Shown piece by piece: positions 38,604-59,166 of a stretch of 64,000 nt of DNA. How positions within the stretch are numbered: the stretch's first letter is position 1; each line of letters opens with the position of its first letter. The stretch is from assembly GCA_017539265.1 (NCBI GenBank), contig JAFYHG010000018.1:8779-72778 (forward strand), in the 5' to 3' direction. The stretch is from Alphaproteobacteria bacterium (GTDB taxonomy: Bacteria; Pseudomonadota; Alphaproteobacteria; CAAHEQ01; UBA3637). Position numbers and translations under genes: made by a program. The notes under the pieces are model-generated. The model was given only the letters and a program-made list of their open reading frames with translations. It had not been told where the DNA came from and made no database searches.

Positions 38604-38672
38604 TCAAAGATACATCAAAAGACGTCTTGTGGTAATGGCTTGCACCTCTTTATAAAACCTTTTCCAATACAT
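38604..38672 (-). pseudogene. 3' remnant of a homolog of ORF 43477..43938
   Basis: Translates ...KRFYKEVQAITTRRLLMYL-stop, compared with ...DRLYEEGQSIITRRLLKYL-stop. Truncated upstream. Confidence 0.5.
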
Positions 38673-38714
38673 CTTATTTTTTAAACGCTCTAAAAAACAT
38701 TATATTGTGATATG

Positions 38715-39563
38715 TTAGTCAGCATCATAGGTCCATTGACCATTTCTTAATTCAAATTTATCTAGATTAAATTTGACAGTACAATTTCCTTCAGGATCAC
38801 AACCGCCTGATATATTATTAAGATTCTTGATTTTTATATCTGTTATTATCGGAAAACGGTAGTAAAATACTTTTATTTTAAATGTAACCAGACCGGTCTC
38901 ATCTCCTAACATATTCTCAATGTAATCTAACGCCTTATCTTTTGGAAGATTTAGTTTGAAAATATCATATCTTTTTGCTTTATCCAATTTGATGTTAATG
39001 GCAACCGAGGAAGCATAATTTAGTATTGTATCTGCTAGATAATTCGCCCATAATCTATTATACTGATTTTCAAATAGCGTTTTAATCTCTTTTAAATCCT
39101 GATTCTCTTTTTTAAACTGGTACAAAGAAAGCAAAGTGTTCAGATTTTTTATCAATGGTTCTCCTTTACTAAAAATTTTAACTAATTCTTCCGTACTTTC
39201 AAAAGGATAATCTTTCTTTTCTAGAGAAAAACGGTGCAAGGCTGATTCAATGGCGGCATAATAGAGAACATGGTTCAATACCGTATTTACACAAGATTGA
39301 TACCTTTTCCCCTTTGTGAGGCATTGCTCTACTCTTGTTTTGATCTTTGCAGAGTCATAAGCTTTATCTATTGCCACAAGAGTTTCTTCTACCGTATCAG
39401 CATTCATTGTACCATCAATAATTTCTTGGGTGAGTTCCAATAATTTTGTTCTAAAATTAGAAATGGATTCTATTTGTTGACTTGTCATATCAAGGGCGTA
39501 ACTTTTACTTGTCATCAATACAAAAGTAATGACCAGAGCTAAGGATATTTTTATTTTAGACAT
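38715..39563 (-). CDS. hypothetical secreted protein
   Basis: Signal peptide MSKIKISLALVITFVLMTSKSYA. Last gene of a 4-gene same-strand block. Confidence 0.5.
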   Translation of the reverse strand: MSKIKISLALVITFVLMTSKSYALDMTSQQIESISNFRTKLLELTQEIIDGTMNADTVEETLVAIDKAYDSAKIKTRVEQCLTKGKRYQSCVNTVLNHVLYYAAIESALHRFSLEKKDYPFESTEELVKIFSKGEPLIKNLNTLLSLYQFKKENQDLKEIKTLFENQYNRLWANYLADTILNYASSVAINIKLDKAKRYDIFKLNLPKDKALDYIENMLGDETGLVTFKIKVFYYRFPIITDIKIKNLNNISGGCDPEGNCTVKFNLDKFELRNGQWTYDAD

Positions 39564-39566
39564 ATT

Positions 39567-41249
39567 CTAATCCTTTCCGATACAATAAGATTCTGTACCA
39601 TATTCATGTCTTTCTCTTCTTATTTTACGATTTTGGCACATATTACATTGTTCTTCTGCTCCTGTTACATTAAGCCTTGCCAGTCCAATACCATAGTCTC
39701 CTTTGGAATCACAAGAATAACAGTGTGCAAAACCATAGCTTACTTCTAAAATGGGTTTTTCTTCCGGACACGGAATCATACAATATCTTCCGATTAATTT
39801 TCGATTTGGACAAAGCTTACAGTTATTCGTTACACCCTCAAGATCTACTAAATTACTTCCATCATTGCATGCAAAACATTCACCATTTTTATCTCTTAAA
39901 GGTTTATCAGGGGGGCATGACTTTAGGATGCTGTATTTTTCAACAATTTCTCTTTCCGTTTCACAAGCATTAGAGATATTTCCATTTACTTCAATTTTTA
40001 CAGGGGCTGAACAAGCATAGCAGTTACCATCGATATCTACTTGGGGTTTATCTGTTGGACATAATACACAACTGTTCCCCGTATCTAAAACAATTCTATT
40101 AGGACAGATCTGACACACCTCTGCAGCAGCAACACGAATACGAGCAATTTCATCACATGAATGACATTCTCCAACTTCATCCCTAAGGGGTTTATCCTTT
40201 GGACATGTTAAGATACAAATATCGCTATATTTTGTGTGGACAGAATACCTGTTGGGGCACACAGAACAATTTGGTGAGTCAATAGATCTGTTTGCTTCAT
40301 TTTCATCACAAGGATGGCAACGTCCTTCCTTATCGGCCAAAGGTTTGTCCTGTGGACACGGGAGAGAACAGAGATTTCCATACATAATACGGTTTGAACA
40401 TAATTGGCATGTTTGCTCATCGGTTTTTAATTTTTCATCGGTTTCACAATCATAGCATCCTGCGTTTACTCTCATTGGCTTATCAGATGGGCAAGTTTCC
40501 AAAATACATCCATTTTTGTAATCGTATATTCTCTCAGGATATAAAGCACATTGTTGTTTTTGAAAATCTATATTTTCTCTCGCTACATAGGCCCTCAAAG
40601 ATTCTTCTTCGTTTTTAGGTTCCATAAACGTAATAGGTAAAGGATCATCAGTGGCACGACAACCACCATTGCTATCGCGAATTGGGAAGTCTTTTGGACA
40701 TTCCCCCTTTAAAAAACAAATATTCCCGTTTAGTTCACGGTTTGCACATTGTAAACAATTACTTCGTTCATAACTTTGACGGAAGCCTAAATCCAATGCA
40801 GCAGGATCATCACATGAAAAACATTTAAATTCTCTTGTTCGTTCATCAACAATCACTTTAATTGGCTTTTCTTCAGGACAACCGAATGTGCAGGTACCTG
40901 TGGCTCCATCGTTATCTTCAAAAAATTGTGTTCCGGGAATTTGGGCACATTCCCAGTCCGTAAGACCATAAGCATCTTCTCTGGAACAAGCATTATAACC
41001 ACTACCTCTTAAAGGATTGTCTGGTGGACATTCTTTCAGAATACAGTGACCATACTCATCCAATTTTCTATTTGAGCATATGCTTGAGCACTCTTGATTG
41101 TAAACCCCGCGTAGTGTATCACAGGAAAAACATTCCCTATTGTACTCCGCTAATGGTTTATCTGGTGGACAAACAATAGGTTCTTTTTCAGCCATTGCAA
41201 AAGAAGGCATCATTATTGATATAAGTAAAAATAAGGTTGTTTTTTTCAT
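39567..41249 (-). CDS. secreted cysteine-rich repeat protein (10x CPxDKP units)
   Basis: Signal peptide MKKTTLFLLISIMMPSFAMA. Ten units of 45-60 aa of the form CP.[DE]KP[LIM]...C..C[DE]...C..C.NR...C. Confidence 0.6.
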   Translation of the reverse strand: MKKTTLFLLISIMMPSFAMAEKEPIVCPPDKPLAEYNRECFSCDTLRGVYNQECSSICSNRKLDEYGHCILKECPPDNPLRGSGYNACSREDAYGLTDWECAQIPGTQFFEDNDGATGTCTFGCPEEKPIKVIVDERTREFKCFSCDDPAALDLGFRQSYERSNCLQCANRELNGNICFLKGECPKDFPIRDSNGGCRATDDPLPITFMEPKNEEESLRAYVARENIDFQKQQCALYPERIYDYKNGCILETCPSDKPMRVNAGCYDCETDEKLKTDEQTCQLCSNRIMYGNLCSLPCPQDKPLADKEGRCHPCDENEANRSIDSPNCSVCPNRYSVHTKYSDICILTCPKDKPLRDEVGECHSCDEIARIRVAAAEVCQICPNRIVLDTGNSCVLCPTDKPQVDIDGNCYACSAPVKIEVNGNISNACETEREIVEKYSILKSCPPDKPLRDKNGECFACNDGSNLVDLEGVTNNCKLCPNRKLIGRYCMIPCPEEKPILEVSYGFAHCYSCDSKGDYGIGLARLNVTGAEEQCNMCQNRKIRRERHEYGTESYCIGKD

Positions 41250-42022
41250 TGTATAAATCCCCTGATTAACTTATCATCCCATCCTTTGTCAGGACCTGTA
41301 AAAAATCCAAACCCAGAATTAAATTGAAAAAGCTTAACTTCATCCTCAGACATATCTCTTGATTTACCAGAAAGAGCATAAACTTTTCCAGAAACTTTTT
41401 CTCCATCTTGTATTATTTCAAAAGCCTTTCCACCAGTTCTATAAAAGAGTGTTGCTGTGGCTATTTTCTTTTCTTTGTCTACTGATCCAAGATATTTTAA
41501 ATTTCCATTTTTATAATATACCTTAAATTCTCCGGCCTCATCATTTTCTGGATATTCAGCGAATTTTTCACCGCTGGCATAACGCTGTTCTTCTACGTAC
41601 TCCTTTCCATTTTTATAAGTAATACTCCATCTTTGTTCACCATTAATATGGTAATGTATTTCTTTTCCTTCTTTTTCTCCGTTTAAGTATGTTCTTAACA
41701 TTCTTGGAGTCCCATCCGGACGATATTCTTCCAAGGTACCATTGTACTTTCCATCTTTCCAATGAACAATAAAGCGTTTCGTTCCATTGGGCCAATACCA
41801 AATTTCTGTTCCGTTTTTTAGACCATTTTCATAAGGTATTTCTTTTTGAATATTCCCATTTTTAAAGGGAACTTTTACCATCCCTGTAATACTTTGATTG
41901 TTCTGATCTACTACCATATTTAAAGCTGGATCTAAACGGATATCTTTTTCCTGATAAATCGTTTCGGCATTTACAGAAGCCGAAAAGATTAAACACAATG
42001 ATAAAATAAATTTATATTTCAT
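41246..42022 (-). CDS. secreted MORN-variant (YwqK-like) repeat protein
   Basis: Signal peptide MKYKFILSLCLIFSASVNA. Repeats such as YENGLKNGTEIWYWPNGTKRFIVHWKDGKYNGTLEEYRPDG. Confidence 0.65.
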   Translation of the reverse strand: MKYKFILSLCLIFSASVNAETIYQEKDIRLDPALNMVVDQNNQSITGMVKVPFKNGNIQKEIPYENGLKNGTEIWYWPNGTKRFIVHWKDGKYNGTLEEYRPDGTPRMLRTYLNGEKEGKEIHYHINGEQRWSITYKNGKEYVEEQRYASGEKFAEYPENDEAGEFKVYYKNGNLKYLGSVDKEKKIATATLFYRTGGKAFEIIQDGEKVSGKVYALSGKSRDMSEDEVKLFQFNSGFGFFTGPDKGWDDKLIRGFIQ

Positions 42023-42023
42023 A

Positions 42024-42911
42024 TTATCGAGCCCCCAAACTGATACTAAGTGCTATATCCATCAAATAATCTGTTGCTTTTTGTTCGTCTAAAATGCTTT
42101 TTTCCCCGTTCTCAGAATAAAATTCTCCAGCAATGGCCTTATCTCCTTTGATAGTCAACCGCAACATGGGTTTATTATTTTCATAGTAGACCGTATAGAT
42201 ATAATTTGCTTGTTCTTTGAATTCTTCAGGTACTGGTTCTATATAAAGATATATTCTATTATTACTCGCATAGTAAGTTTTGGTATTTGTTGTCTGATCT
42301 TCTGAGAACGAAAGATTCCCTTTATAATCATACTGTTCCCTTATAGAATTATTTTCATAGCAAGATTCTACTTTTCGTGCTGGCAATTCAGTAATTGGTA
42401 ATCCGGTTACTTTTGAAATGCGTTTCTGTGTCGGGTCAATTTTCGACCTGTATCCGGAATAAGGCCTTCCATCTCTATAATACGTACTTTTAACGCATCT
42501 GTTCATTTTGTACTCTGTTTTTTGGGAAATTTCGCCGGGATGATATTTGTCATATTCAATTACCATACCATTTAGATATCCATCCTTAAAATCATACTCT
42601 TTTTCAAGAATATCTTCTCTATCATAACACTTCATCTTCCCGTCTTTTTTACCGTTTTTTACGGAAAGTTCCATCTTATGGCAAACTGACCACGAATTTG
42701 TCCCGGGTAAAGCAAACACCCTTGTCGAAACACTTTTTAACTGATCTGACTCATTATACAATATTGTTCCTGTGATCGGGTTATAGTTCTTATCATAGAT
42801 AATATCACTTTCCCGAACATCAAGAATATCTGTTAAAGAGTAAACTGCTTGCCCAAAAGATACGGAGGGGCATAAAGCAATGAATAATCCCAATATGGCT
42901 ATTTTTTTCAT
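42024..42911 (-). CDS. secreted MORN-variant-like repeat protein
   Basis: ATG 42911 with SD ggggga. Signal peptide MKKIAILGLFIALCPSVSFG. KNGKKDGKMKCYD...FKDGYLNGMVIEYD repeats. Confidence 0.55.
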   Translation of the reverse strand: MKKIAILGLFIALCPSVSFGQAVYSLTDILDVRESDIIYDKNYNPITGTILYNESDQLKSVSTRVFALPGTNSWSVCHKMELSVKNGKKDGKMKCYDREDILEKEYDFKDGYLNGMVIEYDKYHPGEISQKTEYKMNRCVKSTYYRDGRPYSGYRSKIDPTQKRISKVTGLPITELPARKVESCYENNSIREQYDYKGNLSFSEDQTTNTKTYYASNNRIYLYIEPVPEEFKEQANYIYTVYYENNKPMLRLTIKGDKAIAGEFYSENGEKSILDEQKATDYLMDIALSISLGAR

Positions 42912-43254
42912 AACATCCCCCATAATAAAACACTTTTTGTATTGTAAACAATTTTTTTCTAAATGCAAGTGTAAAAAAACGAACATTTTTATTGTCTGCT
43001 GAACTAAATATATTACGAACGTTTTTTAATATTGTTATATAAAATGATCAAAAAGATCTACAAACCGGATATCAAAAAATGCACTAAAAGTTCACCATAA
43101 AGTTCCATAAAAATTGTCCTAAAATCAATTTAAAAATGAGGATAAGAAAAGTGTTTGTTTGTGTCCAAGGATTGTGTCCACCCCTTGTTGCCAAGCAAAA
43201 TTCCCAATTTCAGGCATAAAAAAAGCCTTGATAAACAAGGCATTATTTTAAAAG

Positions 43255-43271
43255 TGGCGCGCCCGGCAGGA
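43255..43271. repeat. att copy 2
   Basis: tggcgcgcccggcagga. Confidence 0.85.
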
Positions 43272-43476
43272 GCTTGGTGGAAAAGTGAAATAACCCACTG
43301 GATCAATTAAAAAATTTTTGGGCGATTTTTGAGGGTTTTCAGAAAGTGCCCAGGGGATGACAAGGGGTGATGAATGGACAAACTTCTTGATGTATTTCAG
43401 GGGTAATTTTACATAAGGATAAAAGTATATTTTGGATATCTGTCATAGGAGCACAGGTTGGGCAAAAAGGCATTTA

Positions 43477-43938
43477 TCAAAGATATTTCAAAAGACGCCT
43501 TGTAATTATGGATTGCCCCTCTTCATAAAGTCTGTCAAGGTACAAGCGTTTCGTAACTCCGTCATTTAAGTCCGAAATATTCCTTATTAGATTATGGACA
43601 CAGTCTATGGAGGGTTTTCTGTGTTCACAAAGGAGCATTCCAAAATAGTACTTGTTCTTGTTCAGGAACTGTTCACTGAACTGGTACTGGCTGTCTATAT
43701 ATCCTAATTTGCGGAGGTACTTATAGCATTTAGTTATAAATTGAGCATCTTCTGTTTGGTCAGAGTAAGGGGGATTGGAGAGTTCATCTGCAACCTCTTC
43801 ATCGACATTTTTGGTGTTTTTAGGTGCGGGTGGCACAAGTTCCTCCGGTGTATTCAGATGCTTTCTGATTTTCCTCATATTTTCGGCAATATCTTCAAAA
43901 CTTACAATCATGAATAATTTCCTTTTAGTAATAGACAT
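43477..43938 (-). CDS. hypothetical protein conserved at the element's tRNA-distal end
   Basis: ORF of 153 aa. A remnant of a homolog lies at the same relative position in the neighbouring element. Confidence 0.5.
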   Translation of the reverse strand: MSITKRKLFMIVSFEDIAENMRKIRKHLNTPEELVPPAPKNTKNVDEEVADELSNPPYSDQTEDAQFITKCYKYLRKLGYIDSQYQFSEQFLNKNKYYFGMLLCEHRKPSIDCVHNLIRNISDLNDGVTKRLYLDRLYEEGQSIITRRLLKYL

Positions 43939-43988
43939 CTGTATTTATAAAGAAAATGATTAAAAAATGGAATTTTTTAAAAAAGATC

Positions 43989-44017
43989 TTGGCTTTTAAA
44001 ATGATCGGCTATATAGT
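43989..44017 (+). promoter_or_regulatory. candidate promoter (island promoter cassette, copy A)
   Basis: TTGGCT-17 nt-TATAGT followed by cccgggcc. Paralogous to 47186-47214. Confidence 0.5.
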
Positions 44018-44060
44018 CCCGGGCCCCGGGCAAGACTGGGGTAACTGAAAGGATAAAAAT

Positions 44061-44432
44061 ATGCTGGAACAACAAATGATACAAAGCGATAACCTGAATA
44101 CCATTATGGCAAATTGCTATGGCACAGAGAATTATTACACAAACAACTATTTGAAATACAATTACACAGACGGAATTAAAACTTTCTGTGAACAGGCATC
44201 CGCTTATTGGTTATTGAGCCTTATCCAAGGGGTTTATACAAAATATCCTCAAATGCGGAAAGATTTAATTGCTATAACACTAATGGTAAATGATGACAAT
44301 ACTGCCATTATTACCTTTACCGATGAAAAAGGTCAATTTTATAAGCAGCGTATTCCTTATACGGATTGTCCGGTAGGAGAATGGAAATTTTATTTTGAAA
44401 ACAATGTATTTTTCTGGAATGGAGAATATTAA
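44061..44432 (+). CDS. hypothetical protein (resembles the DUF6876 plasmid/ICE family, from memory)
   Basis: CYGTENYY...YTDGIKTFCEQASAYWLLSLI motif block. Confidence 0.4.
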   Translation: MLEQQMIQSDNLNTIMANCYGTENYYTNNYLKYNYTDGIKTFCEQASAYWLLSLIQGVYTKYPQMRKDLIAITLMVNDDNTAIITFTDEKGQFYKQRIPYTDCPVGEWKFYFENNVFFWNGEY

Positions 44433-44433
44433 T

Positions 44434-44865
44434 ATGAATAAAGAACAAATTAAAGAAGCAATATTAGGGAAAAAAGATTGTCATGGGGAAGAAACACCTC
44501 TCTGTCAATTTTCAACATTCCATCCGGATATGGAAATGGTGGAGATATTATTAAAAGGTGCGGATATTAATAAATCTTTTAATCACCAACCGATGGCATG
44601 GGTATTTCAATTCTGTGAACCGAATTGGGATGAAATGCTCACGCTTTTGTTCAAATACAAATACCATGCCTTACATCTGGACAGGAAAAGCGATTTTGAA
44701 AGTTTACTGCAACTTTTATCCAGAGTTAAACCGGAAACCGTGATGTATGTCTTAAAAATAATGAAGAAACATAGGTTTCGACCGACATTTGAACAGATTG
44801 ATTACATAAATAAATCAAAAGAGGATTTTAAAAAGGAGTTTAAATGGAAAGACTGGGTGAAATGA
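44434..44865 (+). CDS. hypothetical protein, one degenerate ankyrin-like repeat
   Basis: The ATG at 44434 follows the upstream stop. EMVEILLKGADIN segment. Confidence 0.4.
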   Translation: MNKEQIKEAILGKKDCHGEETPLCQFSTFHPDMEMVEILLKGADINKSFNHQPMAWVFQFCEPNWDEMLTLLFKYKYHALHLDRKSDFESLLQLLSRVKPETVMYVLKIMKKHRFRPTFEQIDYINKSKEDFKKEFKWKDWVK

Positions 44866-45317
44866 CAAAAGGTTTGTTAAAAGCAATCAATGAAAGGAAT
44901 TGGCGAGAAATTAAAAGGCTGGTTCACTTGGGCGGAAACTTAAATGCCGCTTACGATCCGTTTGGAAATACACCCTTTTTATATGCCATGCATATTTTTA
45001 AGAAAGCGGAAGAAATTGAACGCTTGATTAAATTAGGTGGAGATGTGACCTATAAAAACAGGGTGGGAAAAACAGCCTTGATGATAGCAGTTGAAAATGG
45101 GTGTGAACCGATAACGCCTTGGGTTATGGTGGATTATGGAGCGGACATTAATGCACAGGATGCATTGGGAAACACCGCCTTAATGATTTGTTTAGAATCC
45201 AGATTATATACCAAGAAACTGCTTTATGCCCTGATAGATTACGGGGCAGATTTAACCAACCTGAAGAATAAGGAAGGGAAAACAGCGTTTGATATACTAT
45301 ATGATGAATTAGAGTAA
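44844..45317 (+). CDS. ankyrin repeat protein
   Basis: SD aaggag 5 nt before the ATG. Repeats GNTPFLYAM...LIKLGGDV, GKTALMIAVENG, GNTALMICL...LIDYGADL. Confidence 0.75.
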   Translation: MERLGEMTKGLLKAINERNWREIKRLVHLGGNLNAAYDPFGNTPFLYAMHIFKKAEEIERLIKLGGDVTYKNRVGKTALMIAVENGCEPITPWVMVDYGADINAQDALGNTALMICLESRLYTKKLLYALIDYGADLTNLKNKEGKTAFDILYDELE

Positions 45318-45336
45318 TCACTTTTGCGGAGAAGTG

Positions 45337-47076
45337 TTAACTAATCCGCAAATCTTTAATAGTTAATTCTTTGGTATTATTATCTTGGGGAAAATCTTTC
45401 CTGTCTTTTTCCCCAAAACCATATTCTTTTCGGCAATTTTCTAATTTGTTCCAGTCTTGCACACGATATGCATAAAGAGCAGATCGGGGATACATAATAC
45501 GCTTTCTTTGTCCAACAAAGGGGATTGATGTCTTGGTTCGTTTCTTTTTATCCGCCATCCTCTTTTTTGCTAACCAACTGATACTTTTTTCCAGATAACT
45601 TGCAGCAACTTTAGGTGACATCCATCCTGCATGAAGTGCATAACGGAGATGTGGTGATCCACTTGGTTTCCCTTTTCCTTCCAATCCCAAAGATGATATA
45701 ACGGATTGATAATTATGACTTAAAAGCATTTCCTTAAATACTTCTTTTTCTCGTTCTCTTTGGGGAGTGTTTTCATTAGTATACGCAATATTAGCGATTG
45801 TTGATTTATCACTTAAAGTGCATTCCTCAAAATCAAATCTCTTTAAGAAAGAAATATTCTCCAGAACAAGGTTACATCCCTCAAAAGAAGTCTGACTAAA
45901 GGAAACATCTCCCCCGAAAAGAGTGTTCCTTATAATAAAGTGCCGACTTCTTGGCGTTGCGTTAAACTTCAATTCTGAATTATTTAATAAAAAGGCACTA
46001 GATCTATTAAAAATACAGTTATGGATATAAAAACTTGTGTGAAATAAACTATTTCTAAAATCAAACTTACCATTTACAGTGCACTGCTCAAATGTTATAG
46101 CGTGCTTAATTTCCCTTGCGGGTGCAAAATCTTTCTCAAAGAAGCAATGATTAAAAGTGACTCTTGCTCTTATCGCATCATGGGGACAGACATAGTTAGC
46201 GGAAAATAGACAATCTTTGAAGAAAACACCTTCCATTGGATTAAATGCCCCATGAAAGCATATCAAATTCCAAAAGAATTCCTGCTCTTTTCTACCAAAT
46301 TCTACATTTTCTATTATAATAATAGAGCGACAATATTCGGAAGGAACTATTTTATATTGATGAGGTTTCTTGATTGTCTTGGTTGCCTGCGGGTGTTGTA
46401 GAAATACAATCTTATCTATTTCCTTTTTAATTTCAGGAGATTTGGTTTGTTCCGCCAGCATATAAAAAGGAGTACGGATTTCTTTCAAAAAGTCTGGATA
46501 CAAAACGGTTGGCAAGTGTTTTGTCAGTTGAACGGGTGAATTTCCAAACTTTTTGAACAGGTAAAGCAGTTCTCTTAAAAAATATCTGCCATTATTACCG
46601 ACTTTAGTTCTTATTCGTGCTAATGCTCCGACCATTCCTTTGGCATCTGCTAGGTCTTCAATATCTTGTGTTGTAATTTTGCCTCTTTTGTAATCATCTG
46701 TATCAATTTCAAAACAGGCAGAAAAGATATCTTGGAAGGTACGGATACATAACCTTAATGTTTGGTCAACACCTATTGGGTAATAATCGGGATGCGTAAA
46801 TGCATCAGGATATCCCTTCTCTGGTTGTTTTGTTTTAATGTATGTTTGTAAAATGTTTGGATAGACATCCGTCCAAAAATCTAAATTCAAAGATTTGAAC
46901 CGACCTTCTGGTCCATAGACCAGTTCTTCTTGGTAATCTTCATCTAAAAAAAAGTTTGGGCGTTCCAGTTTCATAAAAAACTCATATAAGTTGAAAAAGT
47001 TGGGGGGATTATACCACAAAATCTCCCAAAAGTCCAGAAGAACAAGAAATGTTAAAAAATCCATCTTTTTTAACAT
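45337..47076 (-). CDS. hypothetical protein: unknown N-domain + beta-helix/pentapeptide-like repeats + C-terminal excisionase-type HTH
   Basis: Periodic F.[NDQE][CST].F units across residues about 300-440. C-terminal MSPKVAASYLEKSISWLAKKR...IPFVGQRKRIMYPRSALYAY. The start is uncertain. Confidence 0.5.
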   Translation of the reverse strand: MLKKMDFLTFLVLLDFWEILWYNPPNFFNLYEFFMKLERPNFFLDEDYQEELVYGPEGRFKSLNLDFWTDVYPNILQTYIKTKQPEKGYPDAFTHPDYYPIGVDQTLRLCIRTFQDIFSACFEIDTDDYKRGKITTQDIEDLADAKGMVGALARIRTKVGNNGRYFLRELLYLFKKFGNSPVQLTKHLPTVLYPDFLKEIRTPFYMLAEQTKSPEIKKEIDKIVFLQHPQATKTIKKPHQYKIVPSEYCRSIIIIENVEFGRKEQEFFWNLICFHGAFNPMEGVFFKDCLFSANYVCPHDAIRARVTFNHCFFEKDFAPAREIKHAITFEQCTVNGKFDFRNSLFHTSFYIHNCIFNRSSAFLLNNSELKFNATPRSRHFIIRNTLFGGDVSFSQTSFEGCNLVLENISFLKRFDFEECTLSDKSTIANIAYTNENTPQREREKEVFKEMLLSHNYQSVISSLGLEGKGKPSGSPHLRYALHAGWMSPKVAASYLEKSISWLAKKRMADKKKRTKTSIPFVGQRKRIMYPRSALYAYRVQDWNKLENCRKEYGFGEKDRKDFPQDNNTKELTIKDLRIS

Positions 47077-47185
47077 TGCTTTTAAAGGATTTGAAAAATA
47101 AGGCTATTTTATTTTAACCTATATGCCCCAAATTATGAAATGTTTAATTTTAAAGAAAAAACTTATATTTTTTAACATTTAGGGC

Positions 47186-47214
47186 TTGGCTTTTCAAAAA
47201 ATCGGCTGTATGCT
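47186..47214 (+). promoter_or_regulatory. candidate promoter (island promoter cassette, copy B)
   Basis: TTGGCT-17 nt-TATGCT followed by cccgggcc. Confidence 0.5.
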
Positions 47215-47257
47215 CCCGGGCCGCAATAAAAGTTCAATTTTAACGAAAGGATACAAA

Positions 47258-47839
47258 ATGGTTAATCAAGTTTTTATTGACGACAAGAAAATTAAAGACA
47301 TCTTAACTTACATTCAGGGGATGAGACATGCTGAAATGATACGGATGATGTTTTTATGTTCACTGAATGGCATGAGGTCTATAAATTTCGCCTATCTCCA
47401 AGTAGGTGATGTTTATACTCCCGACTTTAAGGTTAAGGATGTCATTTGTTTGGATGCGGATAAAAATAAAGGAAAGTTCGGGTGTTCGTATTATCTTAAC
47501 AGCCAAATGAAGAAAGAGTTTAAGGAGTATTTAGGGTATTTGAAGGCTAAAAATGAAGAGATTACGCCAGAAATGTATTTGTTTACCTCACAAAAGATGG
47601 GAAAACCTTTCAACCGTGTGTCAATTTCACGGATGTTCGCAACCGTTTACAAAAAGTTCAACATTGAAGGAGCATCACACTTGGGGCGACATTTGTTCGT
47701 GAGTCGGCTTATCAATGCTGGAACTAATATCTGTTTGGTTCAGAAACTCGCCAACCATCGCAACATTGGCACAACCCAACGTTATTTTAATTATAACGAG
47801 AAAATGCTCTCAAATGCTGTGGAAAATGTAGTTTTATAG
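47258..47839 (+). CDS. small tyrosine recombinase, FimB/FimE-like size (catalytic domain only)
   Basis: SD aaagga. 193 aa. HLGRHLFVSRL and LANHRNIGTTQRYF catalytic motifs. Confidence 0.75.
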   Translation: MVNQVFIDDKKIKDILTYIQGMRHAEMIRMMFLCSLNGMRSINFAYLQVGDVYTPDFKVKDVICLDADKNKGKFGCSYYLNSQMKKEFKEYLGYLKAKNEEITPEMYLFTSQKMGKPFNRVSISRMFATVYKKFNIEGASHLGRHLFVSRLINAGTNICLVQKLANHRNIGTTQRYFNYNEKMLSNAVENVVL

Positions 47840-47850
47840 CTGTGTGGTAG

Positions 47851-48113
47851 CCTAAAAGTGTATATAATTTTAAGTTATATCTCTTTTTCTTCTTCTTGAA
47901 TTAGAACATGTTCTAATCCACAGAGTATTTTATAGATTCCGAGGAATCTTGTTTGAACTAGTAATTTTTTTAGTTCTTTAAATTTAGCATGTATTTGTAT
48001 CAAAATTATTTTTTCTTTAAAAATTTGATTGGAATTTTTCATAGTAATATCCTTTCTTAAAAAAATAAGGGAACATTAAAGTCCCCATCTATTTCAACTC
48101 ATACACTTTTAGG
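47851..48113. repeat. 13-bp perfect inverted repeats flanking a 237-bp segment (candidate invertible element or MITE)
   Basis: cctaaaagtgtat at 47851-47863 and atacacttttagg at 48101-48113. Internal 18-bp palindrome attagaacatgttctaat at 47900-47917. Confidence 0.55.
47875..48042 (-). CDS. possible 55-aa ORF inside the IR-flanked segment
   Basis: aaaggatattactATG SD/start. MKNSNQIFKEKIILIQIHAKF... No homology judged. Confidence 0.3.
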   Translation of the reverse strand: MKNSNQIFKEKIILIQIHAKFKELKKLLVQTRFLGIYKILCGLEHVLIQEEEKEI

Positions 48114-48161
48114 TATTACATGTTATTTAATGATTGCGCCAAGTGTTTGATGCATTTGTTT

Positions 48162-49130
48162 TTATGGTGTTTTTTGTAATTTCTTAAATTGGTAAAATAC
48201 AGATGCCGGCGAAACACCGAAATAGTCGCCAATTTGTCTAAAACTCATTCCAGCTGTTTTCATTCGTACCAATTGTTTGCTATCCACTTTAAAGTCTTCC
48301 CAGCCTTTATTTTTAACTAAATCAAATTTTTTTATAACCCTGTAGATACTCGCTGGATGGGCATTTACCTTTTTTGCAATTTCTTTTCCCGAAACACCAG
48401 AAAAATACAATTTTTTTATAAGTTCTTCCTGCTTTCCCAACCGACTATTCAATTTAATTTGATCAGGTGTCCGGGTTAATCCCATTTTTTTAATTTCTTG
48501 TTCAAGAAGTTTATGAGAGCATCCTAATTTTTCTGCTATAAAGGAAATGGATCTTCCTTCAGCAAACATCTCTTTTATCTTATCCTTTTTAAGGTCTAAT
48601 TTCTTCAGTTTAGGTGCTTCTAAATTATGTAAAAGAATGAAATTATACAATGTTGAATAGCAAACATTATATTTTTGTGCAATGGCTTTTCTAGAGACAC
48701 CTTTTAATAATAGGTCTTGTATATCATCTTTATAGTGGTCTATTCTGGTCCAGTTATGGCGAGGTTCTGGTTTTAACCCCAATAATCTTTGTTCTTCTAA
48801 TGTTTTTTTGCCTTTTTTATAGACCTGTATACGATCAAGTGATGCGACATAAATACCGCTTTCTTTTTCAAATTTTATGAGTGTTCTGCGGCATATTTTC
48901 AATTTTTTACAGATATCTTCACGCGTTAGCCCTAATTTATAAAAATGTTTTATTTTTTCGGGATTAAGTTTTATTTCCCGAGTATGTGGTTCTCTTTTCC
49001 ACCCTAAATCTTTTAGATAATTACGAAGGGTAGAAAGACTTATATTCATACGATCCGCTATCCCGCCCAAGGAAAGGTCAGATTTGTAGAGTTCTTTTAA
49101 TTTGTCTATATCTAGTTCAATTTTGTTCAT
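48162..49130 (-). CDS. DNA-binding protein with six tandem helix-turn-helix modules
   Basis: Six units of the form [IL]K.[LM]Y..G.S...IA.K.......[LI]...[IL]KK..L, e.g. GVSGKEIAKKVNAHPASIYRVIKKF. Confidence 0.6.
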   Translation of the reverse strand: MNKIELDIDKLKELYKSDLSLGGIADRMNISLSTLRNYLKDLGWKREPHTREIKLNPEKIKHFYKLGLTREDICKKLKICRRTLIKFEKESGIYVASLDRIQVYKKGKKTLEEQRLLGLKPEPRHNWTRIDHYKDDIQDLLLKGVSRKAIAQKYNVCYSTLYNFILLHNLEAPKLKKLDLKKDKIKEMFAEGRSISFIAEKLGCSHKLLEQEIKKMGLTRTPDQIKLNSRLGKQEELIKKLYFSGVSGKEIAKKVNAHPASIYRVIKKFDLVKNKGWEDFKVDSKQLVRMKTAGMSFRQIGDYFGVSPASVFYQFKKLQKTP

Positions 49131-49146
49131 TTATGGGCGGATTTTC

Positions 49147-49174
49147 AAAAAAAGCGGAGTATTTCTACTCCGCT
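49147..49174 (-). terminator. Rho-independent terminator after the island adhesin
   Basis: On the minus strand, agcggagta-gaaa-tactccgct forms a 9-bp stem followed by ttttttt. Confidence 0.65.
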
Positions 49175-49234
49175 CACTTAAATTAACTAATAGGAAGGGA
49201 GACCGAGAAATCAGTCTCCCCGGAGTTCTTCGCA

Positions 49235-52200
49235 TTAGAATCCAAAAGTCACACCGACTTTGTAGGACACGCTGTCGTTGCCACCATAGGCAGCACCGGC
49301 GTTCAACAATGTCCGGTCGTTGAGATAATGGAATGCACCAACAGCCAAGGCTTGGTTGTTCTTGTATCCGCCCAAAGCCGCACTGACTTGCGTTTTGTGG
49401 ACATGATCCAGAGGAACAAGACCTGCCAAAGCGTTGTTAGCAGCTAACCCGTTTTCCATCTTGGTTTCTAACTTGTTGATACGGCGATCAACGCGGGCGA
49501 ATTCAGCACCCAAGTTATCATTCAAGTTGGTCAAGAGGTCAGAAATGCTTGACGGATCACCAACGGCTTGTGCACCAACAGCACCACCATTAGCTTGTTC
49601 TTTTCCTTTAAAGAACTTTAAGTTCTCTAAAGAAGACAAATCGCCAACAGTTTCATCAACGGCTTCAAAAGCAGATTCTGTAGCTGATTCTAACAATGCA
49701 ATTTGGTTATCTGTGTAAGTATTAGCATTGGCCTCAGCTGTATCAGCAGCACCATATGCATCATATGTATTAGCTGCAATAGCACCACTGATAGATGTAA
49801 TCTTACCATCTGTTTCAACGATGTTCAAAGACAAACCATCAGCACCTGCTGCTTGTGATACATTAGCATCTAAAGCATTAACTTTACCATCTGCGTAAGT
49901 CTTTGCATCAGCCAAAGCATTAGCAGCAGCACCATATGCATCATATGTATTAGCTGCAATAGCACCGCTGATAGCTGTAATCTTACCATCTGTTTGTGTA
50001 ATACTTAATGATAAGCCATCAGCACCGGCTGCTTGTGATACATTAGCATCCAAAGCATTAACTTTACCATCTGCGTAATTTTTGGCATTGGTTTCTGCTG
50101 TATTAGCATAACCTTTTGCTTGAGTATTCACATAAGTAACTGCTTCTGCAAGAGAACCAACCTGTTCGGTTGATACTTCTAAAGCGGTACGCATTGTATC
50201 CAGATTACCGACACGGCTATCAAGACCTTTGATTTGTCCATCTAAAACAATGTCAGCACCTGTCAATGTTGTTGCAGCTGTCAGGTAGTTTGTATCGGCG
50301 TATTCGTTGTTAACTGCATTCGAATTGGCCGAAGTAATACCCAATGTGTTATCAACCCATTGTTGTTTCTCGTTGAAGATAGCTTCTGCTTCTGTCCGTG
50401 TATAGACATCTGCGAGATTTGCTTTGTTAGCATCCAAAGCATCCAAAGCACCACGAACTGTTGTCGTTGAGCCTTCGCCTTGCTTTAACACAGAACCGTC
50501 TACAGCTTCTTCATCCGCATAGTTAACATCACCGATGGTGTCATTTGTGCCTTTGATTTGCGCATCCAAAACAATGTCAGCACCTGTCAAGGTTGTTGCA
50601 TCCGTCAGGTAGTTTGTGTCGGCGTATTCGTTGTTAACTGCATTCGCATTAGCCGAAGTAATACCCAATGTGTCATCAACCCATTGTTGTTTTTGTGCAA
50701 AGATAGCTTCTGCTTCGCTTCTGACACCGGCAACAGCCGTTGTAACAGCGGTATTAATCTTGCCATCAACAACTTTGCCCAATGAATCATCATAGGCCGC
50801 TACACTAGCCTCATGAGTAGCTGTATCAGTTGTGAAGTTAGTATTAGCTGTTTGCAATGATCCTTCCCAATTATTCAGGTTAGTTACTGTTGCTTGGTCA
50901 GTCGCCATGGTAGTAGCAATCTTATCCTTATTTGCAACGCTGTCATCATAGTAACCTTTTAATTCGGATTGTCTATTGGCCAGAGCCGTTACATCAGATT
51001 CGTAAGCATTAACTAGGTCTGCTTTGATACCTGCTGTAGTTGCATCATCTGCTGATACTGCTGTTCCATTTTTCTTTAAGACATAGCCATCTTCTGACGC
51101 TTCGATGGTATAATGGTCACCTGCAGTATTCGTCAATTCATAATTGGCAATATCAACACTTCCAGTTCCTGCGCTAGATGCAGTGATATCAAGTTTACCA
51201 CCTAAATCACTCGTCTGAACTGTATCTGTTAATTCTGCAACCGCTGTGCTACCTGCGACAGAAGTAGAATTACCATCTTTATCATATGTGACATATGTAT
51301 AATCATCGGCAGTCAGAGTACCACTATCATAGGACAGGTCGGCCACAGCAGAAATACCATCTACAGTAGCAGCTGCAGAAGTTGCAGTGTAATCTGCCGA
51401 TGTATAGGAAGCACCAGCGACTAAATCTGTGGGATTACCTTCTGGATCTGTAAAGCCATAATCCGCGGCATCCGGTGCATCACCAGGAGCGTTTGCAGAA
51501 ATGCTTGACACTTTATCAGACAATGTCTTCAAAGCAGTGTCCAAAGCGGTATCAGCACCCGTCAAGGTTGTTGCAGCTGTCAGGTAATTTGTTCCGGTGT
51601 ATTCGTCGTTAACTGCATTCGCATTAGCCGAAGTAATACCCAATGTGTTATCAACCCAGGTTTGCTTTTCGTTGAAGATAGCTTCTGCATTATCCCATAA
51701 TGTTCCCAAAGCGGTATCTGTATAGTTTTTCGCATAAGTCTTTGCATTTGCTTCAGCTGTATTCGCTTTCGTTGTTGCATCAGTAGCAGCGGCTGTAATC
51801 GCTTCGGATTTAGCAGTAGCAGCAGCACCATAAGCATCATATGTATTTGCAGCAATGCTACCAGAAATACCAGTAATCACACCATTTTCTTGAGTGATGC
51901 TCAAAGCCAATTGACCATTACCTGCGGCTGCAGCTTGAGTTTCTGTTGCATTCAAAGCATCAATTGCATCACCAACTGTTTTGCTCACAGAACCATCGCC
52001 TGTACCATTCAAGGTAGCAATAGCGCTCTCGTTTGTTGTGATTTTACCTACAAGAGTAGAAGTAATACCAGAGTTGACGGCAGCTAATTGTTCTGTTCCC
52101 AATTTTGCTTGGTATGTATTCGCCAAATCTAAAGCATCAATTGCATCACCAACTGTTTTGCTCACAGAACCATCGCCTGTACCATTCAAGGTAGCAATAG

Positions 52201-52726
52201 CATCTGCATTGGCTTTAACCTGTGTATCCAATAACTTATCTGCGCCAGCCATTGTTGTTGCGCCTGTCAGATAATTTGTACCGGTATACGCATTTGTTAC
52301 CCCAGTTGTTCCGGTGGATAAATCAACGCCCAATGTTTTCTGGGAAATGACACCACCTGTTAATTCTACAAAATCACCAACAGCAGTATTGACAACGGCA
52401 TAATCACCAGCATCTGAACTACCCGCTAGCAATTGTGCTAAAGCATCACGAGTGTATTTGGGGTGAGCCGCTGCAAAATCTGCATCAATGGTGTAATCTG
52501 TTCCACCAAGATTTGTAGTGTAGGTGTCTGTCCCCGTTGTGATGGCTGTATGAAAATTAGTTAAGTTTGTTGCAACTGAAGCAGTAGGGTCATAAGCCTC
52601 ATCTGCTGCCTTTGCACCTGTGGCAACGATTAAGCCCACTGCAAAGGCATTAAGCAGAAAACATTTCTTCAAAACACTACGGTATCTCGCAGAAAGTTCT
52701 CTGATTGTTGTTTTTGTATATTTCAT
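49235..52726 (-). CDS. trimeric autotransporter adhesin (YadA-like), island-borne
   Basis: Extended signal MKYTKTTIRELSARYRSVLKKCFLLNAFAVGLIVATGAKA. Long internal repeats. Anchor ...GAFHYLNDRTLLNAGAAYGGNDSVSYKVGVTFGF. Confidence 0.85.
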   Translation of the reverse strand: MKYTKTTIRELSARYRSVLKKCFLLNAFAVGLIVATGAKAADEAYDPTASVATNLTNFHTAITTGTDTYTTNLGGTDYTIDADFAAAHPKYTRDALAQLLAGSSDAGDYAVVNTAVGDFVELTGGVISQKTLGVDLSTGTTGVTNAYTGTNYLTGATTMAGADKLLDTQVKANADAIATLNGTGDGSVSKTVGDAIDALDLANTYQAKLGTEQLAAVNSGITSTLVGKITTNESAIATLNGTGDGSVSKTVGDAIDALNATETQAAAAGNGQLALSITQENGVITGISGSIAANTYDAYGAAATAKSEAITAAATDATTKANTAEANAKTYAKNYTDTALGTLWDNAEAIFNEKQTWVDNTLGITSANANAVNDEYTGTNYLTAATTLTGADTALDTALKTLSDKVSSISANAPGDAPDAADYGFTDPEGNPTDLVAGASYTSADYTATSAAATVDGISAVADLSYDSGTLTADDYTYVTYDKDGNSTSVAGSTAVAELTDTVQTSDLGGKLDITASSAGTGSVDIANYELTNTAGDHYTIEASEDGYVLKKNGTAVSADDATTAGIKADLVNAYESDVTALANRQSELKGYYDDSVANKDKIATTMATDQATVTNLNNWEGSLQTANTNFTTDTATHEASVAAYDDSLGKVVDGKINTAVTTAVAGVRSEAEAIFAQKQQWVDDTLGITSANANAVNNEYADTNYLTDATTLTGADIVLDAQIKGTNDTIGDVNYADEEAVDGSVLKQGEGSTTTVRGALDALDANKANLADVYTRTEAEAIFNEKQQWVDNTLGITSANSNAVNNEYADTNYLTAATTLTGADIVLDGQIKGLDSRVGNLDTMRTALEVSTEQVGSLAEAVTYVNTQAKGYANTAETNAKNYADGKVNALDANVSQAAGADGLSLSITQTDGKITAISGAIAANTYDAYGAAANALADAKTYADGKVNALDANVSQAAGADGLSLNIVETDGKITSISGAIAANTYDAYGAADTAEANANTYTDNQIALLESATESAFEAVDETVGDLSSLENLKFFKGKEQANGGAVGAQAVGDPSSISDLLTNLNDNLGAEFARVDRRINKLETKMENGLAANNALAGLVPLDHVHKTQVSAALGGYKNNQALAVGAFHYLNDRTLLNAGAAYGGNDSVSYKVGVTFGF

Positions 52727-53005
52727 TAACTATACCTTTCTTTTTAATATTAAAATTAAAGTTACGAGGAGTTCTCTTTTTCAAAACCCTCGTCCGTCAT
52801 CTTACACAAATGTTCCTTTATGAAATGATTTGAAGAAAAGTGATAAAAATAGCATACTTTTGTCTTATATATTATTGTATTTTCAATATGTTATATTCAA
52901 TTTTAATTTTTTTAAAAAAAATGTTAAAAAATGTTTGCAATTTAAGGAACTATTTTTTGCATATGAAATTATCGGCAATAAATAACTTTAACAAAAGGAT
53001 ACAAA

Positions 53006-53617: not shown

Positions 53618-53767
53618 TGGGAATGTTCCTCGCCAAAAGGCGGCTAACCACTTTGTTTTTGATCTTGTATGACGGCATCAGGCAGTTTAATCCCACTTAT
53701 TATACAAAAGCCCTCTATTTTAATCCCAAATAAAAGGAATCTATTATCAAATTCACCTCTATAATAG

Positions 53768-53800
53768 TTCTATTTTATTTCTATTATAATTCTATTATAG
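53768..53800. repeat. three tandem AT-rich 11-mers (DUE-like)
   Basis: ttctattttat / ttctattataa / ttctattatag, head to tail. Confidence 0.6.
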
Positions 53801-54047: not shown

Positions 54048-54076
54048 ACCCCTGTAAATCAATTTTAGGAGGTTTT

Positions 54077-57006: not shown

Positions 57007-58779
57007 ATGTCATACCACTATCCTGGACTGATTATATTATACGGGCAATTTTATATTAGGGTTAGAATACCCGCCTGTTTAAGAATGATCGCCAGATGCA
57101 AAGAGATAAGATATTCATTACAAACAAAAATCTATCAGGAAGCAATTGAAAAGTACCACGTGGAATTTGCTCATTTACAAGCATTTTTAACAATTTTTAA
57201 GGATATAATTATGAAAGTAAATGAGAATAAACAATTAACTTTAACTGAAACTGATGTGGACAAATTATTGCTCCACAGGTTAGAACAAATCCAAACCTTT
57301 TTGGAAAATAATGTAGATGAAATCAAGTCCCGACATAAGTCCGAGGCAGATATTATTTTGCTCTCAAGGGATAAAAAAGAAGCGGATATCCGCAAATTAA
57401 TGCAGGATATGATTTTGGGTTATTTGAAAGGACTGGTGGATAAAAATAAGGCAAATATCACTTTGCGGATGATTTACACTCAACTCAAAAATAAAGAGAT
57501 TGAGTTGGGGTTAGTGCAACAGGGGGAAAAATATGATTGGTTAAAAGCATTTTCCACCCACATTAACCATTTAGACCATTATGCCCAAAAATCTGTTAAG
57601 GCAATCCAAGAGGAAAAGCATTATGCCCCAACCAACCCAAAGGTTATAACCCTTTTGCGCACTTATGATTCCATGAAAACGGATGAGCGAATTCACTGTT
57701 CTATGGCAGCAACCCATTGGAAAAAGTTTTTCAAACGCTATCTGACGATGAAAAAGAATATTAAAGGGACATCTAATAAAAGGTTGTGTAAATTGGAGAA
57801 ATGTATTTGGTTAGCATTTGCACTTATGAAACGGGAGTATGTAGAAGATGTAACCAAACAGGATTGTCGCCAACTTTGCGAACTGATACATCGAGTTCCG
57901 AAACGGTGGCAAGAAAAAATTAGGGGAGATGATATTTTCCAAATTTTGACAGATAACCCTGAAAAGGCACTATCTAAAACAACCATTCAAGGATACTTAA
58001 CAGTATTTAAGGAGTACATGCGTTATGCTGAAAGAGAGGAGATTATTTCCAATAATTTGAATAGCGCAGTAGATGTACCTATCAATGTAAAACCATTTCA
58101 GCGAGAACCCTTTACAGCGAAAGATTTACACAAGATGTTTAATTCAGAAACATATATAGATCCCCGTATCAGAAAGGATTTACCCAAATTCTGGATACCA
58201 ATTATAGCCCTTTACCATGGTTGTCGTTTGAATGAAATCTGTCAATTGGATGTCAATGATATTGTGCAAGAAAAGGGAATACCTTGTATCAGCATTAATG
58301 CAAATGCCCCAGATAAATCCGTTAAAAATAAAGGATCTGAACGAATAATACCACTACATCCAAAACTAATTGAAATGGGATTTTTATATTATGTTGAATA
58401 TCAAAAACGAGGGCACAAACGAAAATTGTTTGACCTAAAACAGATTAAAAACGGGATGTATGGTAGTCCGGTCCAACATTGGTTTGCACGATATTTAGAT
58501 AGTATTGGGATAACGGAAACAACCAAAGTTTTTCATTCGTTCCGGCATACTTTTGAGACAATGGCAACAGAAAAGAGAATTCCCCCACAATATCAAAATG
58601 CAATTTGTGGGTGGACAGAACAAGGCATTGGACAAAGACTTTATGCCCACAAGAAGGACATGAACATTATGTTAGAAGAAATCAGCAAAATTAACTATCC
58701 AATCAATCGTGAACTGTCAGAACTAAAGAAGTCTTTCATGGATTCATTTGTTGTCAGGTCTTTAAGGGCAAATGGATAA
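57007..58779 (+). CDS. tyrosine integrase (tRNA-targeting, long N-terminal arm domain)
   Basis: N-terminal FYIRVRIP...EIRYSLQT. Catalytic CRLNEICQL, HSFRHTF and GQRLYAH motifs. Adjacent to tRNA-Arg. Confidence 0.85.
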   Translation: MSYHYPGLIILYGQFYIRVRIPACLRMIARCKEIRYSLQTKIYQEAIEKYHVEFAHLQAFLTIFKDIIMKVNENKQLTLTETDVDKLLLHRLEQIQTFLENNVDEIKSRHKSEADIILLSRDKKEADIRKLMQDMILGYLKGLVDKNKANITLRMIYTQLKNKEIELGLVQQGEKYDWLKAFSTHINHLDHYAQKSVKAIQEEKHYAPTNPKVITLLRTYDSMKTDERIHCSMAATHWKKFFKRYLTMKKNIKGTSNKRLCKLEKCIWLAFALMKREYVEDVTKQDCRQLCELIHRVPKRWQEKIRGDDIFQILTDNPEKALSKTTIQGYLTVFKEYMRYAEREEIISNNLNSAVDVPINVKPFQREPFTAKDLHKMFNSETYIDPRIRKDLPKFWIPIIALYHGCRLNEICQLDVNDIVQEKGIPCISINANAPDKSVKNKGSERIIPLHPKLIEMGFLYYVEYQKRGHKRKLFDLKQIKNGMYGSPVQHWFARYLDSIGITETTKVFHSFRHTFETMATEKRIPPQYQNAICGWTEQGIGQRLYAHKKDMNIMLEEISKINYPINRELSELKKSFMDSFVVRSLRANG

Positions 58780-59089: not shown

Positions 59090-59106
59090 TGGCGCGCCCG
59101 GCAGGA
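59090..59106. repeat. att copy 3 (within the tRNA)
   Basis: tggcgcgcccggcagga corresponds to tRNA positions 60-76. Confidence 0.85.
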
Positions 59107-59166
59107 TTCGAACTTACAACCTTCTGATCCGTAGTCAGATGCTCTATCCAATTGAGCTACGGGCGC
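59090..59166 (-). tRNA. tRNA-Arg (anticodon ACG)
   Basis: Manual fold: acceptor GCGCCCG/CGGGCGC, D arm GCTC/GAGC, anticodon stem TCTGA/TCAGA with loop CTACGGA, T loop TTCGAAT, encoded CCA. The T stem GTAAG/CCTGC has one A-C mismatch and one G-U. Confidence 0.85.

Follow-up and report, generated by a model that had tools for sequence, protein, structure and literature searches.

Recombination directionality factors (RDFs) of the RdfS and excisionase (HTH_17) family are stand-alone proteins of about 60-110 amino acids (aa). RdfS binds attP as well as the promoter of its own gene and so coordinates excision with rdfS/intS expression; it both regulates promoters and directs recombination (PMC11963761). 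In Tn4430, the recombinase TnpI has an internal recombination site (IRS) of about 116 bp beside its gene, with four motifs sharing a 9-bp core, of which an inverted pair is the crossover core and two are accessory (PMC2847244). Here we describe a locus with likenesses to both, found in a 64,000-nucleotide (nt) stretch (the window) of contig JAFYHG010000018.1 (assembly GCA_017539265.1, positions 8,779 to 72,778) from an uncultured gut Alphaproteobacteria bacterium. A gene for a large fusion protein (BIG) faces a gene for a small tyrosine recombinase across a block of four half-sites. The fusion protein is a previously undescribed three-part protein in which a helical domain is followed by a beta-helix of pentapeptide type and a DNA-binding domain of excisionase type; a literature search returned no description of a pentapeptide-excisionase fusion, or of the DUF6876 and DUF6626 families encoded nearby. 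We tentatively favor the reading that it is an optional dimeric winged helix-turn-helix (wHTH) regulator, or an RDF-like accessory factor, of the recombination module that it faces. The fusion protein gene and its parts are as follows.

45337..46974, minus strand: corrected coding sequence of the fusion protein (BIG), 545 aa plus stop, from homologue starts and promoter position
46975..47076, minus strand: 34 extra codons of the earlier reading, non-coding, containing the BIG promoter and site B
46360..46974, minus strand: N-terminal all-alpha domain, aa 1-205, without detectable homologue
45775..46359, minus strand: right-handed quadrilateral beta-helix of ~8 coils (21-23 residues each, Phe/Cys ladder), aa ~206-400
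45619..45774, minus strand: helix 404-419 capping the beta-helix, and a low-confidence linker, aa 401-452, from the AlphaFold2 model
45415..45618, minus strand: basic excisionase-type wHTH, aa 453-520, from AlphaFold2 topology, charge, and family-level HTH_17 and RdfS matches

An earlier note on this DNA, made from the letters alone, had assigned the protein to a 579-aa open reading frame (ORF; 45337..47076, minus strand). The frame is present, but it starts too far upstream. A search of 5.8 billion protein clusters gave seven homologues, and the starts of all but one aligned with M35 (MKLERPNFF), the exception (P0005) carrying the same spurious N-terminal extension. The best promoter match of the region, a TG-extended σ70-like promoter with 10 of 12 matches (-35 TGGACT at 47036-47031, a 17-nt spacer, -10 TATAAT at 47013-47008), lies between the upstream ATG of the longer frame and the downstream ATG of the 545-aa coding sequence; transcription starts throughout were inferred from such consensus matches. 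Because homologues start at M35 and the promoter sits between the two ATGs, the coding sequence is 45337..46974, and residues are numbered in this 545-aa frame. The discarded ATG at 47076 falls within the half-site AATGTTAAAAAA, as part of AATGTT, and read in codons this half-site gives M-L-K-K.

An AlphaFold2 model built from an 8-sequence alignment (AlphaFold alignments here were shallow, at 8-9 sequences) had a mean predicted local distance difference test score (pLDDT) of 72.6 and a predicted template modelling score (pTM) of 0.66. It comprised an all-alpha domain at about residues 30-190, a beta-solenoid at 207-398, a helix at 404-419, a disordered linker (pLDDT <50 at residues 424-449), and a helix-turn-helix (HTH) with a beta wing and two helices at 454-518. 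Some 290 aa of N-terminal sequence had first been left without assignment; a 205-aa helical domain without homologue does stand there, but the model begins the beta-helix earlier, at about residue 207. The periodic phenylalanine-containing units from which a beta-helix had been proposed are real: strict matches to F-x-[polar]-[C/S/T]-x-[hydrophobic] numbered seven against a maximum of six in 20,000 shuffles, at spacings of 22, 21, 11, 53 and 23 residues, and the structure model bears out the proposed pentapeptide-like fold as a right-handed quadrilateral beta-helix. Cys255, Cys277 and Cys320 were invariant in eight close homologues; in a 40-member family, Cys255 and Cys277 were invariant and Cys298 nearly so. 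Canonical tandem A(D/N)LXX repeats at 20 residues per coil were not found, the period being 21-23 residues and Pentapeptide_3 scoring below its cut-off of 27 bits on the window protein (whole protein 15.9 bits, segment alone 23.4 bits); 11 of the 40 family members matched Pentapeptide_3 at E ≤ 0.01.

The closest solved folds to the beta-helix are Qnr, EfsQnr, AlbG and MfpA, which raises the idea, also put forward in the earlier note, of a DNA mimic: a wHTH-tethered beta-helix would sequester or protect a topoisomerase, a restriction enzyme or a recombinase. The helix that follows the beta-helix fits this too, as in Qnr/MfpA-type proteins a helix follows the solenoid in dimers. Known DNA mimics, however, are markedly electronegative, and the beta-helix here is near neutral, with a net charge of -1 over 195 aa (isoelectric point, pI, 6.7), a family mean of -0.8 per 100 aa and a family range of +11 to -13. 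With sequence charge as a proxy for surface electrostatics, no conserved electronegative DNA-like surface was found, and the DNA-mimic label has no support at the sequence level. The coil period, the Phe/Cys ladder and the sub-threshold Pentapeptide_3 score count against it as well, making a DNA mimic very unlikely. The protein thus shares its beta-helix fold with Qnr, MfpA, AlbG and McbG, but differs from them in period, ladder and surface charge and in its fusion to a DNA-binding domain and a further helical one; a connection with topoisomerases was not seen.

The C-terminal segment is supported as an excisionase-type wHTH, in agreement with the earlier note, the assignment being made at the family level. 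HTH_17 was matched by 8 of the 40 members (best E 1.7e-7), and RdfS (8dgl) was the only natural PDB match to profiles of the family (E 1.3e-3) and of the C-terminus alone (E 5.6e-4), in an alignment spanning both HTH and wing. The modelled topology is alpha-alpha-beta-beta-alpha (helices 454-460 and 465-477, wing 482-496, helices 497-504 and 508-518), so that the last 70 aa share the alpha-turn-alpha-wing-alpha order of RDFs. With a net charge of +13 over 68 aa, its pI is 10.3. Unlike in stand-alone RDFs, the wHTH here is the last eighth of 545 aa, and an insertion, DKKKxTRxSIPF, separates recognition helix and wing. Against Pfam, NCBIfam, PADLOC and PHROGs, the whole protein returned only the sub-threshold Pentapeptide_3 and one weak PHROG of unknown function; no effector or enzymatic domain was found, and PADLOC gave no match.

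A profile search of 1.84 billion representative proteins returned 108 matches at E ≤ 1e-3, 57 of them at E ≤ 1e-10. Family members fall into two size classes, about 500-570 aa and about 370 aa, the short forms lacking the N-terminal domain and keeping beta-helix and wHTH. No family member record carried a functional name, and the named records were Alphaproteobacteria metagenome-assembled genomes (MAGs) from rumen or gut; a further profile search of a word-indexed protein collection gave 12 close relatives, without added names or taxonomy. Phage, plasmid and IMG/VR collections held no relatives of the fusion protein, and IMG/VR none of the small recombinase. Across the family, the wHTH segment is the most conserved and most basic part and the N-terminal parts are swapped or missing, which is the pattern of a one-component regulator. 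The recognition helix itself is variable (SISWLAKKR, KKITLQKKR, YSSLLDMRK), and L417 in the capping helix is nearly invariant in the family alignment. BIG is a real, conserved and fast-evolving gene.

Two sets of loci, all metagenomic contigs or MAGs (numbered L001 onwards), were compared with the window: the first was selected by, and so is biased toward, the fusion protein, and the second likewise the recombinase, in a metagenome scan that returned at least 43 loci at 67-91% recombinase identity, where genes were called as stop-to-stop ORFs scored with hidden Markov models built in this analysis. The recombinase, its promoter and the sites between the two genes are as follows.

47249..47839, plus strand: small tyrosine recombinase, 196 aa, catalytic domain only (Pfam Phage_integrase, E 6e-18)
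47186..47214, plus strand: promoter of the small recombinase, TTGGCT, 17 nt, TATGCT, read from sequence and conserved in alignments
47048..47077, no strand: site B, a perfect 12-6-12 palindrome AATGTTAAAAAA-TCCATC-TTTTTTAACATT, candidate core site of the small recombinase
47139..47179, no strand: site A, the second inverted pair (AATGTTTAA ... TTTAACATT), 32 bp between half-site centres
47034..47187, minus strand: whole four-half-site block ('cassette'), ~135-150 nt, from an nhmmer profile

Candidate catalytic residues of the recombinase, assigned by eye (R43, H144-x-x-R147, H170 and Y179), were invariant in seven of seven sequences. Its protein was 88-92% identical across loci while its DNA was about 70-90% identical, which indicates strong purifying selection. 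The earlier note had called it FimB/E-like. Like FimB and FimE it is a protein of about 200 aa with little beyond the catalytic domain, encoded beside surface-adhesin genes, but membership of that family did not stand: it scored 34.2 bits against a cut-off of 221 for PRK09870 and 15.6 against 222 for PRK09871 (NCBIfam), the XerA, XerD and XerC models fitted better than the FimB/E models (all below their own cut-offs), and no flipped state or invertible element was seen in 24 distinct blocks. A FimS-like invertible switch was rejected, as both promoters lie outside the block and all 24 blocks are in the same orientation state, the tight palindrome always lying distal to the recombinase.

The back-to-back arrangement that had been described is confirmed: BIG and the recombinase are head to head, with an intergenic region of 274 nt (46975-47248). 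This region contains four copies of a 9-bp core, AATGTTAAA, as two inverted pairs, sites A and B. Site B is unique in the window, where none of 100 shuffles gave a match with three or fewer mismatches, and was found in 14 of the 23 first loci and in 24 distinct cassette sequences. The A-B offset is exactly 102 nt, and the spacing of 102/18 (or 32/102/21) was invariant in all block-bearing loci. An nhmmer profile of the 24 block sequences matched the window at 47187-47034 (E 1.7e-21) and also 38 fetched loci. Wherever the flank was long enough, a recombinase gene lay within 0.1-3.5 kb on the A side of the block. In the window, site B is centred about 61.5 bp upstream of where BIG transcription is inferred to start, and site A about 62 bp upstream of the equivalent point for the recombinase, so whatever binds there would co-control both genes.

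This compact four-motif site, with its short-spacer inverted pair and a spacing invariant in 24 sequences, resembles the TnpI/IRS design: as known from sequence, a block of about 135 bp holds four motifs with a 9-bp core and a 12-6-12 inverted pair. It differs in that the recombinase is 193-196 aa long (TnpI has 284 aa), the accessory motifs form an inverted pair with a 23-nt gap and not direct repeats, and no Tn3-family transposase is present. Because the block travels with the recombinase and its half-site stays invariant against a varying recognition helix in the fusion protein, the most economical reading is that it is the candidate site of the recombinase itself. The AATGTTAAA sites had first been read as the fusion protein's own operators; this was demoted, as the block occurs without the protein and the protein without the block. 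Site-like motifs beside AbiL genes in L005 and L012 were also set aside, being a different palindrome (TGTGA-N-TCACA).

Two further observations concern these sequences. An exact 12-nt half-site AATGTTAAAAAA recurs at 52920-52931 (about 0.02 expected by chance in the island, by a rough hand estimate), abutting the putative -35 of a serine resolvase gene (53006-53617) whose product is 55% identical to the resolvase directly upstream of the fusion-protein homologue in L016. Also, a block of about 90 nt is common to the promoters of the recombinase (47137-47222) and of the DUF6876 operon (43934-44025), with a 38-nt core 84% identical, the same -35 (TTGGCT) and the same ribosome-binding site. Other loci have a different promoter type, which in L001, L002 and L014 is again common to the same two transcription units. 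The shared block suggests that the DUF6876 operon and the recombinase may be co-regulated; a structured-RNA reading of it was rejected, since Rfam matched only the tRNA and the rpsB leader.

The earlier proposal that BIG is associated with small site-specific recombinases was borne out by the loci selected for the fusion protein. A recombinase gene was present within 7 kb in 11 of 11 informative lineages (down to about 20% identity), and no more than 2.5 kb upstream in 10 of the 11. A 193-196-aa tyrosine recombinase is head to head with BIG in the window, L001/L002, L008, L009, L012, L014 (where a ParE toxin-antitoxin pair lies between the two) and L020, and in L022 one of 194 aa is found about 2 kb upstream. 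In L005 and L016 the tyrosine recombinase is absent and a serine resolvase gene stands directly upstream of BIG; L018 has several recombinases within 7 kb. BIG faces the recombinase and block, with its start within about 300 nt, in seven BIG-selected lineages and L024. It faces the block in L022, L024, L030, L038 and all window-type loci, and its distance to the right of site B is 40-105 nt in L022, L030 and L038. The fusion protein is the commonest first gene on the cargo side of the recombinase-and-site module.

Like genes for RDFs, then, BIG lies beside a tyrosine recombinase and its DNA sites. In our favored, tentative reading, it would encode a cytoplasmic DNA-binding protein, of an undescribed family from uncultured gut and rumen Alphaproteobacteria, with the basic wHTH as a conserved output end and the beta-helix, usually after an orphan helical domain, as a fast-evolving input end. 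The gene sits on the variable ('cargo') side of a conserved module of catalytic-domain-only recombinase and ~135-nt block, within a tRNA-Arg island. Dimerisation through the beta-helix and the capping helix, a role suggested for the latter by analogy with pentapeptide-repeat proteins, would pair two wHTH domains, which may bind DNA in or next to the recombination and promoter region of the island. Bound protein could then tune transcription and/or the recombination outcome in the manner of RdfS, and the variable beta-helix and N-terminal domain may present a partner- or signal-binding surface. A dual-function wHTH is plausible because RdfS provides a precedent for both jobs (PMC11963761). The protein would be an optional accessory and not the core of the module, and its RDF-like activity, like the directionality or anti-defence role raised in the earlier note, is putative.

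Several results weigh against this reading. HTH_17 gave no match to the isolated C-terminus of the window protein, even at E ≤ 10. Identity across loci is 27-81% for the fusion protein and 88-92% for the small recombinase, and so the two do not co-diverge. The recombinase-seeded scan showed the block travelling with the recombinase and not with the fusion protein: at least five loci (L046, L050, L051, L052 and L058) have the four-half-site block without a BIG-type gene, and no other protein of these loci carries a BIG-type wHTH. BIG is broken into fragments beside an intact recombinase and block in L043, L045 and L047; it is inverted, with its stop codon abutting site B, in L041, L044 and L061; and it occurs without the block in L005, L016, L018 and L010. 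Given block and recombinase without BIG in at least five loci and fragmented BIG in three others, the partnership is not obligatory, and the fusion protein is dispensable for the recombinase-and-site module, which also sets it apart from known RDFs.

The main competing explanation, possible though on the doubtful side, is that BIG is exchangeable cargo: one of a set of interchangeable accessory genes, most of them of defence or toxin-antitoxin type, that gather beside the recombinase site, here coding for a DNA-binding immunity, exclusion or defence-regulating factor with no role in recombination, acting alone or with its ankyrin, X and DUF6876 neighbours. The slot to the right of site B indeed holds BIG in either orientation or, judged by N-terminal sequence resemblance, other genes: L050 and L058 have an AbiL-like pair there, L051 an ATPase of DUF4143 type, L052 a DUF262-like gene and L046 a gene of 312 aa; toxin-antitoxin-like genes are also among the cargo bordering the block. 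Two of these cargoes, those of L050 and L051, lie between the full block and a partial right-half copy of it (L050 5186-5273; L051 9590-9664). BIG loci are embedded among type I restriction-modification, BREX, AbiL, Abi_2, OLD-like and toxin-antitoxin genes and adhesins, and the fast divergence, shuffled N-termini and pseudogenes of the family would suit cargo. Its lack of an effector or enzymatic domain and of a PADLOC match, in contrast, does not favor a defence gene, and the excisionase-type DNA-binding domain and the lack of relatives in phage, plasmid and IMG/VR collections point the same way. No other gene fills the slot nearly as often as BIG, which is usually first in line facing the block and has a recombinase directly upstream even in loci without the tyrosine recombinase.

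An alternative in which a dimer of the fusion protein binds the AATGTTAAA half-sites (21-bp spacing in B, 32 bp in A) and activates or loops both promoters, as a master autoregulator, appears unlikely. It would account for both dyads lying near -62 from the divergent promoters, a class-I-activator-like position, and for half-site spacings of whole helical turns; related ATGTTAAA-type repeats also lie upstream of distant members without the tyrosine recombinase (L016 and L018). It does not sit well with a block that is unchanged in the loci lacking a BIG-type wHTH, that in L041 and L044 adjoins the gene's 3' end, and that in L030 is separated from the start codon by only 40 nt, which makes for another promoter geometry. 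An invariant half-site also fits the nearly invariant recombinase better than a variable recognition helix.

A bolder extension of the preferred reading, which we consider improbable, is that recombinase and block form an undescribed cargo-exchange platform in islands of gut Alphaproteobacteria, with the fusion protein as its dedicated 'giant Xis', a signal-sensing factor for directionality or regulation. An IRS-like site design would then give an integron-like outcome, shuffling defence, toxin-antitoxin and regulatory genes, and the variable beta-helix would decide when cargo is exchanged or the module expressed. As in an integron platform, a conserved recombinase and site region adjoins variable accessory genes, and partial site copies follow the cargo in L050 and L051. 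Here, however, the recombinase is not IntI (its match to the integron-integrase model was weak and far short of the cut-off), folded attC-type sites were not found, the cargo has its own promoters and includes multi-gene systems, and capture is only putative. The recombinase-and-four-site module with variable defence cargo is a more unusual object than the fusion protein.

Other features of the loci were recorded alongside. L022 and L023 share the same fusion protein, and their homology breaks off precisely at the left boundary of site A. L025 has two genes inserted between the recombinase and site A, with an 18-nt stretch of the half-site directly repeated on either side of this insert. Closer lineages keep the convergent ankyrin/X/DUF6876 operon and the divergent DUF6626 gene, with identities across loci of 26-74% for the ankyrin protein, 66-72% for X and 54-75% for the other module genes. 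A DUF6626/DUF6876/X/third-gene module occurs twice, inverted, in L014 (8001-13948; also in L015), with only one copy linked to BIG and the recombinase; a 617-aa gene beside the second copy in L014 was considered as a family member and rejected as unrelated to the fusion protein. A second recombinase lineage (L022, L026-L062; 67-77% identity) has a different fixed synteny. In L022 the order is ankyrin, DUF3768, DUF1737, recombinase, then a conserved gene of ~128 aa, a variable set of genes and finally the site block; most of L026-L062 likewise have the ankyrin gene upstream of the recombinase, and the L022 module lies inside an island bounded by a large serine recombinase beside aspS. Adhesin or autotransporter genes resembling those of the window also flank the recombinase in L012, L013 and L005.

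In the window, BIG and its neighbours lie in a genomic island, in a region that is AT-rich relative to its flanks, with the following further features.

43255..43271, plus strand: left attachment (att) repeat (TGGCGCGCCCGGCAGGA, identical to the tRNA-Arg 3' end), from exact repeats
59090..59166, minus strand: tRNA-Arg(ACG), right island boundary (ARAGORN, Rfam)
57007..58779, plus strand: 590-aa island integrase (DUF6538 and Phage_integrase), beside the tRNA
44844..45317, plus strand: ankyrin-repeat protein, convergent with BIG (Pfam Ank_2, E 1.8e-13), position kept in BIG-selected loci
44395..44865, plus strand: conserved ~145-aa protein 'X', weak ankyrin-like signal (Pfam, synteny)
44061..44432, plus strand: DUF6876 protein, first gene of the convergent operon (Pfam DUF6876, E 2.5e-24; synteny)
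43477..43938, minus strand: DUF6626 protein, divergent from DUF6876 (Pfam DUF6626, E 3.3e-7; synteny)

Exact copies of the last 17 nt of tRNA-Arg (59090-59106) stand at 43255 (43255-43271) and at 38382 (38382-38398), with related flanks, and the three occurrences define two tandem elements. The first, the island proper (43272-59089, 15.8 kb), carries the DUF6626, DUF6876, X, ankyrin, BIG and small recombinase genes together with those of a multi-HTH protein, an adhesin, the serine resolvase and the integrase. The second (38399-43254, 4.9 kb) has no integrase and abuts the rpsB leader (Rfam RF01815; 38108-38226, minus strand), which lies just outside the leftmost att repeat and marks the return to the core chromosome. 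Secreted MORN and Cys-rich proteins are encoded in it, and at 39567-41249 (minus strand) lies a gene for a 560-aa protein built of Cys-rich repeats. In the island, a 1163-aa repetitive surface protein (49235-52726, minus strand) looks, by appearance, like a YadA-type trimeric autotransporter, and downstream of this adhesin gene a 322-aa protein (48162-49130, minus strand) comprises about six tandem small HTH units (HTH_7, HTH_38 and HTH_23), matching Cbp1-like in NCBIfam and mad1 in PADLOC.

If the fusion protein acts on the module, it would be the first case of an excisionase-type factor that carries a large sensor or scaffold of its own, and this would widen the idea of what a directionality factor or island regulator looks like. 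If it is plain cargo, it becomes a candidate non-enzymatic DNA-binding defence or immunity factor. Whatever the function of BIG, the comparison exposed the pairing of a compact, very conserved small recombinase with a four-site block. In uncultured gut and rumen Alphaproteobacteria, this pairing shows where conserved backbone gives way to variable defence cargo, and it offers a concrete, testable way into the question of how such organisms assemble their defence islands.

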